Shown piece after piece: positions 4,548-13,547 of a DNA stretch of 37,181 nucleotides. Numbering within the stretch: the first letter of the stretch is position 1; each line of letters starts with the position of its first letter. A program made the position numbers and the translations under genes. The stretch is taken from the IMG/VR virus record IMGVR_UViG_3300009502_000014, positions 1 through 37,181 of that record. One strand, 5' to 3'. The notes beneath the pieces were generated by a model that made no database searches, was not told the DNA's origin, and was given only the letters and a program-made list of their open reading frames with translations. Source of the stretch: a virus.

Positions 4548-4874
4548 TTACTTGTCTTGATCGTGTTCAATGCGCTTGTGGTCATAGCAGACTTTCTCGC
4601 CTACATAACCCTTCATCTCGCCTAGCATCCCATCATTCTTGCCCATGTGTGATGCTTCGCGCAAACCAAGACCGTCAGCTTTGCCCATGCCCACGCCACC
4701 AGCAATAGGGGCTTTACGCTCACCTGATGTATCCGATGCAAGTACGCCTTTAGGCATTTTCTCTCCAGATGCGCCAGTATGAAATTTTTCTTTATCAACG
4801 CTTGATGCTTTGATGCGTTTATCACCCGACATATCAGGTTTGGAAACGCCTTTGGGTAATTTTTCGTAGCCCAT
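4548..4874 (-). CDS. Hypothetical Gly/Lys-rich, probably disordered protein with internal repeats (EKLPKGV / EKMPKGV; MGKADG / MGKNDG)
   Basis: 108-aa track ORF. The repeats are visible in the translation. Confidence 0.5.
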   Translation of the reverse strand: MGYEKLPKGVSKPDMSGDKRIKASSVDKEKFHTGASGEKMPKGVLASDTSGERKAPIAGGVGMGKADGLGLREASHMGKNDGMLGEMKGYVGEKVCYDHKRIEHDQDK

Positions 4875-4904
4875 AATAATCCTTTAATAGAAGGTAGCTT
4901 AATT

Positions 4905-5246
4905 TTACTCTCTTACGTTAAACGTGACAACAACTTTATTCCCTGTCAAGTTTGACAATACTGGATGAATCCGAAACATTTTATCATTTATTCCCAGTGC
5001 GTCTGCTATCCCATCTCGTCCAGATTTAAATGCAGCGACTAAATTATCATCGTCCCTGTGTCTGCGATCAGGTGGATAAAACGTAATGTGCATATCAATC
5101 AATTTATCGATTGGCAAAACCAAACCAAGCGTCAACATTTTGCATATTTCTCGATAATTTTTCTTATGTTTTGCTTTAACCGCCCAATGCAATTGCTGAT
5201 TAGGATTCAATTCTTTGGGTGGAAATGGGTATTCTATTGATCTCAT
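4905..5246 (-). CDS. rusA: RusA-family Holliday junction resolvase
   Basis: 113 aa. PPKELNPNQQLHW...HITFYPPDRRHRDDDNLVAAFKSGRDGIADALGINDK matches the RusA pattern (LxPN..hW, f..P..R.rDlDN...K...D.l). Confidence 0.75.
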   Translation of the reverse strand: MRSIEYPFPPKELNPNQQLHWAVKAKHKKNYREICKMLTLGLVLPIDKLIDMHITFYPPDRRHRDDDNLVAAFKSGRDGIADALGINDKMFRIHPVLSNLTGNKVVVTFNVRE

Positions 5247-5338
5247 GTGTGTTTTTTATCACAATATGCGCATTTGATAGTTGGTTTGTAACATTTAACT
5301 CACTACAATTGCAAAGTAGTCTAAACAAAAGGTAACTT

Positions 5339-6301
5339 ATGGCCTTATATTTAACAGACGAACAATTTATTTCCGAATGGCAAAAAATAGGTAGTCCTGA
5401 ATTATTTGCCAAGACGCATAAATTAAATATACGCTCCGTTTACATTCGTAGACGAACAATTGAAACTCGACATAATATTACGCTTGCTAGTACAAACGAT
5501 CAACGAATCTTTGGAAAGCACACCCGCGCTGAAAAAGCAGCAGTCAATATTAGAAGCGAGATTCAATTAGAAAAAGGCACAGTCATTGTTTTTTCAGACG
5601 CACACTTTTGGCCTGATGAAACAACAACCGCCTTCAAAGCCCTGATTAAACTAATCAAAGAATTAAAGCCATCTGCCATTGTTTGCAATGGTGATGCCTT
5701 TGACGGTGGTGCCATTTCTCGGTTTCCCCGTATCGGCTGGGATCACAAACCAACCGTCAAAGATGAAATTGAGGCGTGTAAGTTTTATTTGGGTGAAATT
5801 GAAAAAGTAGCAAAGGGTGCAAAACTAATCTGGACAATGGGCAACCATGATGCACGTTTTGAAACGGCATTGGCTTCGGTTGTTGGACAATATGAAAATG
5901 TGCCAGGCTTTTCCTTAAAAGATCATTTTCCATTTTGGCAACCTTGCTGGTCGTTCTGGGTCAATGACGATACCGTTATCAAACACCGATTCAAAGGTGG
6001 TCGTTATGGCGGCTACCAAAACACAATCAATAGTGGTGTAAACATCATAACGGGTCATACGCACGTTTTAGCAGTCCAACCTATAACTGACTATAACGGT
6101 ACTCGTTACGGTGTCCAGACGGGTTGTTTAGCCGATCCTGAGGCCCTGGCGTTTGCTGATTACACCGAAGATAACAGTAAAGACTGGCGATCAGGGTTTG
6201 CGGTTTTAACTTGGGATCGTGGCAAGCTGTTAATGCCTGAGCTAATTCAAGTATGGGATGAAGATGAAGTGCAATTTCGCGGCAAAATAATCAAAGTATG
6301 A
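5339..6301 (+). CDS. Calcineurin-like metallophosphoesterase with an N-terminal HTH-like extension
   Basis: 320 aa. Motifs VFSDAHF, NGDAFDGG, GNHD and GHTH appear in canonical order. The roughly 70-aa N-terminus (FAKTHKLNIRSVYIRRRTIE) looks HTH-like. It sits on the opposite strand to its neighbours. Confidence 0.75.
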   Translation: MALYLTDEQFISEWQKIGSPELFAKTHKLNIRSVYIRRRTIETRHNITLASTNDQRIFGKHTRAEKAAVNIRSEIQLEKGTVIVFSDAHFWPDETTTAFKALIKLIKELKPSAIVCNGDAFDGGAISRFPRIGWDHKPTVKDEIEACKFYLGEIEKVAKGAKLIWTMGNHDARFETALASVVGQYENVPGFSLKDHFPFWQPCWSFWVNDDTVIKHRFKGGRYGGYQNTINSGVNIITGHTHVLAVQPITDYNGTRYGVQTGCLADPEALAFADYTEDNSKDWRSGFAVLTWDRGKLLMPELIQVWDEDEVQFRGKIIKV

Positions 6302-8941: not shown

Positions 8942-8945
8942 TCAA
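7995..8945 (-). CDS. C5-methyltransferase N-terminal catalytic part (frame A, 316-aa ORF, TTG start). Only about 8460-8945 looks protein-like.
   Basis: Motif I LFAGAGGG (8907-8930), motif IV GFPCQDIS (8703-8726), motif VI ENS (8595-8603), motif VIII HKRDRIWILA (8460-8489). The remaining 150 or so codons are low-complexity. There is no in-frame ATG; the first codon is TTG, 5 nt after a GGGGAG. Confidence 0.7.
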   Translation of the reverse strand: MNELALFAGAGGGILGGHLLGWRTVCAVEWEPYPASVLCARQNDKVLPPFPVWDDCQTFDGNPWRGIVDVVSGGFPCQDISAAGKGAGITGTRSSMWKHMARIIGEVRPKYAFVENSPMLVTRGLDVVLADLAALGFDARWGVVSAADVGANHKRDRIWILANTQHFGGISPQEVGSDYGIQQQISPRSQLCVNESTGASCLRQDTDMANPRCELRSARNTAKLDAKTQIWSASPIHDQSSGEGQTDMADTTQLFSNGGNDNSRISMEPETQPEFGNDYGSSSISNSNSAQRQGVQQSEQKEQEYSYACNSRWWQT

Positions 8946-9316
8946 GCTAACTCCCCAATTCGTTTTGCAATCCTTGACCTAAACTGGCCAAAATCCTCGC
9001 CCGGAAGCGGGTTAATACCCACCTCCCTGCCTTTTTCCATTGTCAACTGTTCCGTAGAGTACCAAGGCAATTTAGGCTTCTTAGGTTGTGCCTCGCTCAT
9101 ATCCAATTCATCCTCAAATCTGGCTTGATTTAGCCATGTAGAGGCATGAGGAATAAACTCGCTTGATGTATCTTTCAATTTCCAATACCGAATGTGATTA
9201 GGTAGTGTTTCCATCGCTAATTCTTGATCTGCTAATGTCATTTTATCCCAAGCCTTCTGTGCCATGCGCCGAGAAACTTTGCGCGGAAATTGTTGCCAAA
9301 ATTCGTCAAAATTCAT
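8942..9316 (-). CDS. Conserved-looking early protein, function unknown (FWQQFPRKV...HASTWLNQARFEDE)
   Basis: 124-aa track ORF. The pattern vaguely recalls N-termini of some phage replication-organiser proteins, but I cannot support that call. Confidence 0.55.
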   Translation of the reverse strand: MNFDEFWQQFPRKVSRRMAQKAWDKMTLADQELAMETLPNHIRYWKLKDTSSEFIPHASTWLNQARFEDELDMSEAQPKKPKLPWYSTEQLTMEKGREVGINPLPGEDFGQFRSRIAKRIGELA

Positions 9317-12398: not shown

Positions 12399-12441
12399 TT
12401 GTTCACCTGTATTTGTTTAATGGCGTTGTTGCCATGACTAG

Positions 12442-12470
12442 ATATTAAGCTATCTTAATACTAATGTCAA
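12442..12470 (-). promoter_or_regulatory. Sigma70-type promoter TTGACA-17 nt-TAATAT with embedded palindrome ATTAAG-ATAG-CTTAAT
   Basis: The minus strand reads TTGACA TTAGTATTAAGATAGCT TAATAT. -35 is at 12465-12470, -10 at 12442-12447 and the palindrome at 12445-12458. Confidence 0.7.
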
Positions 12471-12484
12471 ACTAGGGACAAACC

Positions 12485-12685
12485 CTAAGCGTTGCGTTTA
12501 TTCCATATTTCAGTAGCTAATTCTGGTTCTTGTTGCGCCCAATTTGTTCCACCACAATGAACATTAATACACCTAACACGCCACCAGTTTTTTTGGTTTG
12601 GCATTGGTTCTAATGTTGCTTTGTTATTGCAAAACGGGCAGTTTTTTAAAGTGTTTGCTAGTGTATTTAGTTTATTGGCTTTCAT
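12485..12685 (-). CDS. Lar-family restriction-alleviation-like zinc-ribbon protein
   Basis: 66 aa. CPFCNNKA...RVRCINVHCGG...TEIWNKRNA matches the Lar_restr_allev pattern (CPFCG...C..C...A...WN.R). Confidence 0.6.
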   Translation of the reverse strand: MKANKLNTLANTLKNCPFCNNKATLEPMPNQKNWWRVRCINVHCGGTNWAQQEPELATEIWNKRNA

Positions 12686-12930
12686 TTGCTAAACCTTTTA
12701 GAAATAGAACGACCAACCCGCAATCTCACGATTTGCGAAATTGTTAGGTGCTGTATACCGTAACCACGGCTGTTCCAGTTGGCCTAACCCAATGACTGGA
12801 GGGCATGGCGGGTGTCGACCCCGATCTCCGTTTCTACCTATTTAACGGCTTCTGCCCCAACTAATCTTTCTTCTTTAGTGCGCTTGATCTTTGCCCACTA
12901 CTGGATTAACTGCCCAATAAGCAAATCGGC

Positions 12931-13012
12931 GAAGAAATAAAAAAACCGCTTTAATCTGTATCTTGGTGAGAGGCCCCTTTTTTTACAGGGCAAGATACAG
13001 ACTAAAACGGTT
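12931..13012 (-). terminator. Long-stem intrinsic terminator, possibly also an RNase III-type site
   Basis: On the minus-strand RNA, AACCGUUUUAGUCUGUAUCUUG pairs with CAAGAUACAGAUUAAAGCGGUU (22 bp including 2 G-U). There is an apical CCCU/GGGG hairpin and a 9-nt bulge. UUUUUUUAUUUCUU follows. Confidence 0.7.
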
Positions 13013-13048
13013 TCATCGGCTCTCACACCAATGTTTAAATTATACACT

Positions 13049-13084
13049 AAAAAGAAAACCCACCCGTACTTTCGCAGAGGGGTG
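13049..13084 (-). terminator. Intrinsic terminator with a GAAA tetraloop
   Basis: Minus-strand RNA CACCC-CUC-UGC-GAAA-GUA-C-GGGUG followed by GUUUUCUUUUU. Confidence 0.6.
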
Positions 13085-13221
13085 AGCCGTGTTGCAAAGC
13101 AAGTCTTACTTTGGGACTGTGTTTAGCCACCTAAGTAACTAAAGGAAAATTATAAAAGGGAAGCTAGTCTTTTCCTAGCAGTCACCCCTGTCAGTAGTAG
13201 GCTACTGTCCCCTGGCTTTTC

Positions 13222-13446
13222 TCAGGGCTGCAATTCAGGCCATATTTCAAGCCAAGATGCGGGAAATAATCCTTTGCGTGTATATTTGCCATTGCTGTGT
13301 TTTTCAAGCTGTGCTGCCAAAAAAATCAATTTTTCTTGTGGTACACCTGCAACACGCCATTGACTAACCGCCGCTGGACTAATTCCACACATCTTGGCTA
13401 CCTTCGTCGTACCGCCTAATATGTCAATGATTTCTTTATGTTTCAT
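13222..13446 (-). CDS. Cro/YdaS-like HTH regulator
   Basis: 74 aa. GGTTKVAKMCGISPAAVSQWRVAGVP is a Cro/YdaS-type HTH. It is the first gene of the leftward unit and has no SD. Confidence 0.75.
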   Translation of the reverse strand: MKHKEIIDILGGTTKVAKMCGISPAAVSQWRVAGVPQEKLIFLAAQLEKHSNGKYTRKGLFPASWLEIWPELQP

Positions 13447-13452
13447 AGATTT

Positions 13453-13481
13453 ATTTTACTTAATGTTAAGTTTGCTTGCAA
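13453..13481 (-). promoter_or_regulatory. Leftward promoter TTGCAA-17 nt-TAAAAT (predicted leaderless transcript)
   Basis: -35 at 13476-13481, -10 at 13453-13458. The ATG A at 13446 is 7 nt past the -10. Confidence 0.55.
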
Positions 13482-13504
13482 CAATTAAAATAATCAATTA
13501 AGAT
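13476..13504 (+). promoter_or_regulatory. Rightward early promoter TTGCAA-17 nt-TAAGAT
   Basis: It uses the same palindromic -35 hexamer as the leftward promoter. The operator-like TTAAGATAGCTTCA (13499-13512) overlaps the -10. An AGGTGA SD precedes ATG 13548. Confidence 0.55.
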
Positions 13505-13547
13505 AGCTTCACTAGCAATCAAGCTAGAAACTCAATACAGGTGAAAT

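Follow-up and report, generated by a model that had tools for sequence, protein, structure and literature searches.

In the plasmids pT181, pIP501 and pAMbeta1, the leader of the rep gene contains a terminator that an alternative pairing prevents from forming, and loop contacts between a small RNA and the nascent leader shift the balance to termination, which provides copy-number feedback. The c4 RNA of phages P1 and P7 is a processed leader RNA whose loops pair with upstream and downstream sites in the same transcript, covarying changes in these partners setting the heteroimmunity between the sister phages; its target in P1 is the antirepressor operon, on which it acts via translation and Rho. 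The CI RNA of phage P4 is cut out by RNase P. This RNA (seqB) pairs with seqA and seqC in its own leader, and premature termination keeps the replication genes off (PMC4825925). In Gifsy-1, a promoter-proximal terminator gives a short RNA, IsrK, as well as a read-through isoform, on which the short RNA acts in trans (PMC4825925). Here we consider an element that resembles all of these in part, from the DNA of an uncultured phage (IMG/VR virus record IMGVR_UViG_3300009502_000014, positions 1 to 37,181; this whole stretch of 37,181 nucleotides (nt) is called the window). The element, which we call the switch unit, occupies positions 12935-13044 on the minus strand, within the gene-free tract that separates a cro-like gene from a Lar-like gene, and it represents a new and well-supported RNA family with respect to Rfam 15.

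Read leftward, in the sense of the cro-like gene, the unit begins with a TATAAT box, followed by a small hairpin (SL1), which displays a short sequence (S1a) in its loop, and by a long terminator hairpin (SL2). The 23-bp stem of SL2 (S2) carries at its apex a mini-hairpin and a second short sequence, S1b, which is single-stranded, complementary to S1a far beyond chance, and capable of forming with it the helix S1; a run of seven U residues follows the stem (Table 1). The unit folds at -45 kcal/mol (z-score -8.1), and in the finished RNA the probability that S1a of the window is unpaired is 0.86. A first-pass annotation, made from the letters of this DNA, had already described the long stem with its apical mini-hairpin and U-run as the second of two tandem terminators, and had noticed that a bulge in it was complementary to a segment just upstream, as in the layout of an alternative-pairing switch. 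Both terminators are indeed where it had placed them, and the pairing that it proposed covaries across relatives. Of 29 distinct loops of the mini-hairpin beside S1b, from the window and from equivalent positions elsewhere, 23 are A-rich (GUAAAAAAAG or UUAAAAAAGG), a conserved feature that could serve for the binding of a chaperone or for pairing with the U-tail at the 3' end.

Relatives were gathered from IMG/VR (a sample of 80 of about 250 cro-linked loci), JGI metagenomes and GTDB genomes, with the cro-like gene as anchor, by means of its protein and a conserved hairpin at the 3' end of cro. More than 100 loci were obtained (numbered L001 and so on where they have to be told apart), and the switch unit was found a short distance downstream of the cro-like gene, and in its sense, in 39 loci (32 of them distinct). 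The -10 box of the family is TATAAT, GATAAT, CATAAT or TAAAAT, often accompanied in distant relatives by a -35 sequence (TTTACT, TTGCAT or TTGCAC) at a distance of 16-17 nt, and SL1, a hairpin of 4-7 bp, begins 9-13 nt after the box. S2 is a near-perfect hairpin of 21-24 bp (18 bp in two near-identical loci), with one or two mini-hairpins and the single-stranded S1b at its apex, and the arrangement of a stable hairpin followed directly by a U-run is conserved in 32 of 32 distinct loci. A covariance model built from 14 members found one copy only in the window (12935-13044), with scores of 115.6 bits for the minus strand and 37 bits for the plus strand. In the related loci, too, it found a single copy each, invariably on the strand of cro, and this held for loci that had played no part in training and for the GenBank record MW202520.

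The idea that this DNA might hold a new RNA element is borne out by searches as well as by covariation. No family in Rfam 15 accounted for the switch unit, either at the gathering score over the whole window or at E <= 10 over 12400-13500, the permissive matches being chance miRNA-like ones on the long hairpin, and we found no description of the element in the literature. In the cultured relatives (Acinetobacter phages, with 44% identity in Cro), cro is followed directly by cII, with no switch unit. A search for hosts gave no match in a single-protein genome scan, and an alignment-based scan gave contigs of metagenome-assembled genomes and weak matches only.

Covariation carries the case for two helices. 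S1a and S1b are present in every member at the same positions, with different sequences: there are about 24 variants, for example GUGAGAG, GUGGAAG, UUGGCGGA, UUGGCCGAC, CUGGCAGAC, UGGUCGGG, GUAGCG and UGGAACGC. The longest perfect duplex between cognate partners has a mean length of 7.6 nt and is never shorter than 6 nt, compared with means of 5.0 nt for non-cognate partners and 4.8 nt for shuffled loops. When RNAalifold was applied to a MAFFT alignment of 14 members, it recovered SL1 and S2, with 16 of 29 pairs compensatory; the pairs of SL1 are kept in 86-96% of alignment cells, one of them showing seven two-sided changes. S1 added as a pseudoknot helix gave 95.6% paired cells, as against 36-46% with the partners slid. 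Two-sided changes occur at 6 of the 7 pairs of S1 (90.4% paired) and at 15 of the 23 pairs of S2 (97.8% of cells paired), values that were reached in none of 500 shuffles, so the check for structural covariation in relatives that the first-pass annotation had recommended gave a strongly positive result. The sequences of S2 are free to covary and contain no conserved internal motif, and G-U pairs are abundant in the minus sense; since many of these would be A-C mismatches on the other strand, we read the structure as an RNA of the cro sense.

The two helices appear to be mutually exclusive. S1a lies in the loop of SL1 and is separated from the 5' arm of S2 downstream of it by 4-11 nt in most loci and by as much as about 24 nt in a few; in the class to which the window belongs, S1b abuts the 3' arm of S2, so that an extended S1 takes the first three bases of that arm. 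From the dimensions of A-form helices, S1 and the full S2 should be unable to coexist, because the short linker would have to span about 30 bp. In folds of the nascent RNA up to S1b, the S1 helix is part of the minimum free energy structure for 27 of 30 loci; the window is one of these, with the register shifted. The full RNA, folded as SL1 plus SL2, is lower by about 13-32 kcal/mol in most loci and by 21.5 kcal/mol in the window. Both partners remain exposed in the finished RNA, the probability of being unpaired being 0.65 for S1a and 0.87 for S1b, versus 0.28 overall.

What lies downstream of the unit is most telling in a group of relatives that we call class 1 (eight loci and MW202520). There, the U-run is separated by 11-17 nt from the start of a DUF1376 (YdaU-like) gene, behind which lies one for a 'replication protein P'. 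This gap leaves no room for a promoter, and the switch unit in class 1 is therefore the leader, or attenuator, of a replication operon.

How might such a unit act? With moderate confidence, we propose that it is a co-transcriptional terminator/antiterminator switch, belonging to a family of phage leader or small RNAs, and that feedback on it may come, in trans, from its own RNA once terminated. Transcription would start at the conserved -10 box, or pass through it, and SL1, with S1a in its loop, would be made first. The long hairpin would follow, beginning with its 5' arm and continuing with one or two mini-hairpins and then S1b; at this stage, with no 3' arm as yet, pairing of S1a with S1b would close a loop around the 5' arm. 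Once the 3' arm has been made, the 23-bp hairpin would be far more stable, yet its lower half beside the U-run, which is needed for termination, would be blocked for as long as S1 holds. S1 would in this way be a kinetic antiterminator, the persistence of which would choose between release of an RNA of about 95 nt and read-through into whatever cargo lies beyond (a structured RNA, type C, and the Lar-like gene in the window; the DUF1376 replication gene or other structured RNAs in relatives), and anything that removes S1 would allow termination. One candidate for such an agent is the released RNA: with S1a and S1b single-stranded, it could act in trans by pairing with leaders still being transcribed, so that their S1 is blocked and termination favoured, giving a dose-dependent negative feedback with phage-specific 'addresses'.

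We propose pairing in trans, with selection on its specificity like that on determinants of immunity or incompatibility, because S1a and S1b are exposed, because they have no other partner in the genome, because S1 changes faster than S2, and because S1 is where most differences between near-identical units fall (in L050 and L055, for example, 4 of 12 positions differ in S1 and 0 of 46 in S2). Sister pairs show 0.23 changes per site in S1 compared with 0.10 in S2 (2.3-fold), with complementarity kept. Such an action would have analogues in the CI RNA of P4, in IsrK, in trans-acting RNAs that derive from attenuators (PMC6614838) and in the antisense-driven attenuation of plasmids. The trans step is something that we infer, and a purely cis-acting switch would fit the data equally well. 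More tentatively still, and as a possibility that we think would more probably fail than hold, the whole might be a self-addressed sensor of RNA dosage. The terminated leader RNA, by its hypervariable S1a/S1b address, would recognise only nascent leaders of its own type, break their antiterminator and shut the cargo off as copies accumulate; the address would diversify under selection, so that there is no cross-regulation among co-infecting relatives, and the cargo slot would be interchangeable, holding the DUF1376 initiator gene or one of at least four unrelated large structured RNAs.

Several points weigh against the proposed switch. It is known here from sequence and predicted folds, and the argument for exclusivity comes from helix dimensions rather than from a three-dimensional model. 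Given how far S2 exceeds S1 in stability, termination could be constitutive. The faster change of S1 could be neutral drift with compensation, and the sister pairs lack independence from one another. No second target of at least 8 nt was found for S1b in the 37-kb window, nor at a comparable position in the GenBank relative MW202674, and further boxes like S1a or S1b are not above chance; the trans model therefore draws on self-pairing only. The -10 box of the window has neither a -35 sequence nor a TGn extension and was not called in the promoter scan. The position of the -35 is taken by the tail of a terminator, T1, belonging to an insert described below, which makes the strength of the promoter in the window uncertain, and the unit there might be transcribed partly by read-through. 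Finally, since the window has a cargo other than a replication gene, the function there may differ from that in class 1.

Compared with the systems described above, the switch unit would be attenuator-like in its action, and it resembles the leader immunity RNAs of P4 and P1 in its logic without matching the Rfam C4 model or having two partner boxes. Like P4 immunity, it involves a regulatory RNA within the untranslated leader of the operon it would control, with short complementary boxes in the same transcript and, in class 1, a replication gene as cargo. It differs from P4 in having only one partner box, S1a, which lies upstream, rather than upstream and downstream boxes; in ending at an intrinsic terminator of its own instead of by RNase P processing; in an internal pairing that, in the model proposed, opposes termination in cis; and in the lack of integrase and cI in the annotated relatives of the window phage. 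The Rfam model for C4 antisense RNA, which covers both the c4 and the CI RNAs, gave no match at the gathering score in the window or at E <= 10 in 12400-13500. The phage-specific S1 'addresses' parallel the covariation that sets heteroimmunity in P1 and P7, although the fold, with its 23-bp terminator hairpin, is different from that of c4. As in IsrK, a promoter-proximal terminator would yield a short RNA and a read-through isoform, but what IsrK does to the long isoform is activate its translation, no alternative structure that covaries has been described for its terminator, and no Rfam match at E <= 10 ties the unit to it. The likeness to plasmid attenuation is that the leader of a gene for replication initiation contains a terminator, with an alternative pairing that would prevent it; in the plasmids, however, the small RNA comes from the opposite strand, whereas the candidate effector here is the terminated leader of the same sense, and a consensus scan showed no antisense promoter.

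Among other explanations, the one that survives best, although we consider it rather unlikely, is that the SL1-SL2 RNA and the insert upstream of it (module A) are stand-alone genes for small RNAs acting in trans on host or phage mRNAs, S1 being an internal mask or clamp and read-through incidental. Discrete -10 boxes with strong terminators would suit this, as would the exposure of both S1a and S1b and the combination of a U-tail with the A-rich loop of the mini-hairpin, a layout typical of small RNAs bound by a chaperone such as Hfq. Small RNAs that derive from attenuators and act in trans are, moreover, documented (PMC6614838). Yet there is no complementary site elsewhere in the phage, an S1 as variable as this one is hard to square with a conserved host target, and the next gene in class 1 has no other promoter, so that read-through must be functional there.

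A less probable view sees in the duplex of 21-24 bp mainly a site for processing or stability, recognised by RNase III or another protein that binds double-stranded RNA, which would part the cro message from the downstream RNA, with S1 modulating access. RNase III sites are well known in the early leaders of phages, and the stem length is kept within narrow limits (about two helical turns, 18-24 bp), well beyond what termination needs. A processing site would have no need of the U-run that always follows the stem, though; the stem covaries freely around no fixed motif, the covariation of S1 would go unexplained, and processing of this kind would be compatible with a switch rather than replacing it. 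Far less credible is the suggestion, made in the first-pass annotation, of a cis-acting RNA like put of HK022, which would make polymerase resistant to terminators without N or Q proteins: two stem-loops do stand immediately after a promoter-like box, and no N- or Q-like protein had been noticed, but we found no specific support in sequence or model, the second of the stem-loops has a U-run and is a terminator in its own right, the defining covarying feature, the RNA-RNA pairing S1, has no counterpart in put, and the leftward genes beyond Lar have a promoter of their own and so would not need processive antitermination. A DNA-level element (replication origin, cruciform or recombination site), suggested by the long inverted repeat and by the replication genes that adjoin it in relatives, is dismissed with similar firmness in view of the strand asymmetry left by the many G-U pairs, the preference of the covariance model for one strand, the restriction of the U-run to the 3' side and the conserved upstream -10 box.

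Returning to the proposed switch and its cargo, we note that the window and most of the other loci have 235-390 nt of non-coding sequence after the U-run, of at least four types. That of the window, type C (about 235 nt), has a GC content of 0.46-0.50, as against about 0.40 in its flanks. Its only relative is in L058 (85% identical, with three compensatory pairs), and a pattern scan for further examples found the contig of L058 only. The GUGA-loop hairpin and the bulged stem pointed out in the first-pass annotation are both present; in L058 the former is replaced by a hairpin of different sequence and the latter has an identical copy. Part of type C (12797-12858, minus strand) can be drawn in a tRNA-like form (GGGGCAG...CGGG-GUCGACA-CCCG...CAUGCCCU-CCA, with an acceptor-like stem, two hairpins, one with a T-loop-like GUCGACA, and a 3' CCA). 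ARAGORN found no tRNA or tmRNA genes, and Rfam gave no tRNA or tmRNA match at E <= 10 for 12797-12858. This reading was dropped because the cloverleaf-like minimum free energy fold is no better than those of shuffled sequences (z = -0.17) and because RNAalifold with L058 prefers another fold.

Type A, which follows the U-run over about 250-280 nt in L030, L033, L039, L050, L061, L065 and others (MW202674, 5114-5390), is a large structured RNA supported by 16 sequences, with 28 of 65 predicted pairs compensatory, and has no Rfam match; in GenBank this region is annotated with several tiny hypothetical proteins, on the wrong strand. Type D matches the Betaproteobacteria-1 RNA of Rfam (RF02932), which was found directly downstream of the switch unit in three relatives with 81-83 bits (gathering score 49.4); the motif is thereby placed in the early region of phages, and it hints that the hosts are Betaproteobacteria. 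It shares with type C of the window nothing beyond its position, type C having no match to RF02932 or any other Rfam family at E <= 10. One might speculate that a large RNA takes the place of the DUF1376 domain. No DUF1376 is present in the window or in MW202674, and MW202520 has DUF1376 and no type A RNA; however, there is no homology between the replication proteins encoded nearby, so that it is entire replication modules that differ, and the idea stays speculative. A protein of 124 amino acids encoded at 8942-9316 (minus strand) of the window resembles PHROG 'replication initiation protein' families in their C-terminal part alone (residues about 179-260 of 383).

The Lar-like gene, which was not found in the relatives examined, may be the only protein gene of the window that is transcribed by read-through of SL2. 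A consensus scan, our only test here, showed no promoter-like site between 12935 and the Lar start, type C included, as the first-pass annotation had supposed. Its further suggestion, that part of the leftward programme depends on read-through, does not stand: leftward transcription is predicted to restart immediately beyond the Lar-like gene, where a hairpin and, directly after it, a consensus promoter are conserved in L001, L019, L021 and others, and the switch can therefore gate type C and Lar at most. For the same reason the tract does not separate cro from everything downstream. A partly palindromic motif, TTAAGATAGCTT (GTTAAGCTATCTTAAC in relatives), stands at this second leftward promoter (12441-12454) and again in the divergent control region between cro and erf (13498-13511), and is probably the operator of the cro-like protein.

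The window as a whole is a nearly complete genome of a P22-like podovirus, with genes for terminase, portal, coat and tail and, in its early region, erf, ssb, a nuclease gene and rusA; its closest relative in GenBank, and the only close one, is the uncultured freshwater phage MW202674. The tract between the cro-like stop and the Lar-like gene, 12686-13221, had been described as 535 nt without open reading frames and as the largest non-coding region. It is in fact 536 nt, with only spurious reading frames of less than 50 amino acids, and the next true gap is of 202 nt; apparent gaps of 791 and 554 nt at 1-1991 correspond to the portal gene running off the end of the window (tblastn, 1989 to 88, 92% identity). 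The description of a structured leftward RNA region agrees with folding against chance, which gave z = -4.9 for the minus strand and z = -2.0 for the plus strand. No start codon with a Shine-Dalgarno sequence occurs in the tract, as had been claimed, but two perfect TATAAT boxes, which the first-pass annotation does not mention, lie within it. Nor is it a single leader: it is a modular chain of leftward non-coding RNAs (the cro terminator, an insert of about 95 nt resembling a small RNA, the switch unit and the larger structured RNA), and these modules reassort independently between phages. Protein coding was ruled out by the short reading frames and by hairpin-shaped insertions and deletions in relatives, and an attP or integration site because no integrase is annotated in complete relatives.

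The cro-like gene, divergent from erf, is followed by the two hairpins that had been noted right after its stop codon. They lie within a compound hairpin that is a probable weak terminator for cro, though its fold alone is not significant (z = -0.6). The first of the two is specific to the window; the second is conserved, GCUAG/CUAGC in the window being GUUAG/CUAAC in relatives, which amounts to one compensatory change (C-G to U-A). The first TATAAT box follows, without a good -35 sequence in the window, where it is only putatively active; in relatives that lack the insert, the matching box is the -10 of the switch unit itself (TGnTATAAT in L002 and L003). The insert, module A, duplicates this box and is present in the window and in five relatives (L001, L019, L021, L023 and L026; not in L002-L005). 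RNAalifold gave it 25 pairs, four of them compensatory, from five sequences. It ends in the terminator with a GAAA tetraloop and U-run that had been recognised from the start (T1; -14.4 kcal/mol, z = -2.45), the sequence of which is different in L001, with hairpin and U-run kept. From these features, module A looks like a separate small RNA gene. Another conserved RNA of about 100 nt, rich in hairpins and with its own U-run, lies between cro and the switch unit in L039 and L040 (about 46-150 nt after cro) and likewise in L011 and L012; it contains ...GACACCAGCACUCAGACUUGUG...GGUGUUAGCGACC... and is unrelated in sequence to module A. In MW202674.1, five short 'hypothetical proteins' are annotated at 4603-5377 (L001 2645-3419), opposite to the cro strand, over the non-coding RNA region and the cro-like gene, and the cro-like reading frame (L001 3232-3456, minus strand of the locus) is unannotated in that record.

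Table 1. Features of the leftward region around the switch unit (window positions unless a locus is named)
Feature	Position	Strand	Description and basis
Promoter-like site upstream of the cro-like gene	13453-13481	-	TTGCAA-17-TAAAAT; within the divergent cro/erf control region; consensus scan
Cro-like helix-turn-helix gene	13222-13446	-	74 amino acids; Pfam P22_Cro 3e-10, YdaS_toxin 1e-9
Compound hairpin after the cro stop (probable weak terminator)	13157-13213	-	Outer stem AGGGGA/UUCCCU around hairpins 13192-13207 and 13163-13179; then U4
First TATAAT box	13149-13154	-	Activity putative
Module A (about 95 nt)	13049-13142	-	Two hairpins and GAAA-loop terminator T1 (13049-13087); relatives, RNAalifold
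Second TATAAT box	13039-13044	-	9-13 nt upstream of SL1; position conserved across the family
SL1	13014-13033	-	Hairpin of 6-7 bp; S1a (13020-13029, GGUGUGAGAG) in loop; alignment, folding
SL2 terminator hairpin	12943-13013	-	S2a 12991-13013; mini-hairpin with A-rich loop 12974-12990; S1b 12965-12973 (CCUCUCACC), single-stranded; S2b 12943-12965
U-run and tail of SL2	12935-12945	-	U7 at 12939-12945; U-run 3' of S2b in every family member
Type C structured RNA (about 235 nt)	12700-12934	-	GUGA hairpin 12719-12737; bulged stem 12775-12799
RF02932 matches	L032 1981-2105; L059 1165-1290; L063 1276-1401		Slot equivalent to window 12700-12934
Lar-like restriction-alleviation gene	12485-12685	-	Pfam Lar_restr_allev 1.4e-7
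Hairpin and predicted restart promoter	12442-12489	-	Hairpin CUUAGGG-UUUGU-CCCUAG (12472-12489), then TTGACA-17-TAATAT (12442-12470) with the TTAAGATAGCTT motif; consensus scan

The switch unit thus adds to the known RNAs a family of dozens of members, in which two competing helices covary strongly and which has no entry in Rfam 15; it comes from uncultured freshwater P22-like phages, probably of Betaproteobacteria. Its design would be unusual, in that the antiterminator would trap the 5' arm in a closed loop instead of competing in the classical way for a strand of the terminator, and the display of both S1 partners in the finished RNA makes self-regulation by an RNA of the same sense directly testable. 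The family also gives a genomic context to orphan RNAs: Betaproteobacteria-1 shares a single, regulated slot with at least three RNAs of 235-300 nt that are in no catalogue, and in other relatives this slot is filled by a replication initiator gene, which narrows the hypotheses on what such structured RNAs do. If the reading as a dosage sensor were true, the unit would be a same-sense, protein-free analogue of both the antisense copy control of plasmids and the immunity of P4, and the RNAs in the slot would seem to act in the early or replication programme of these phages.

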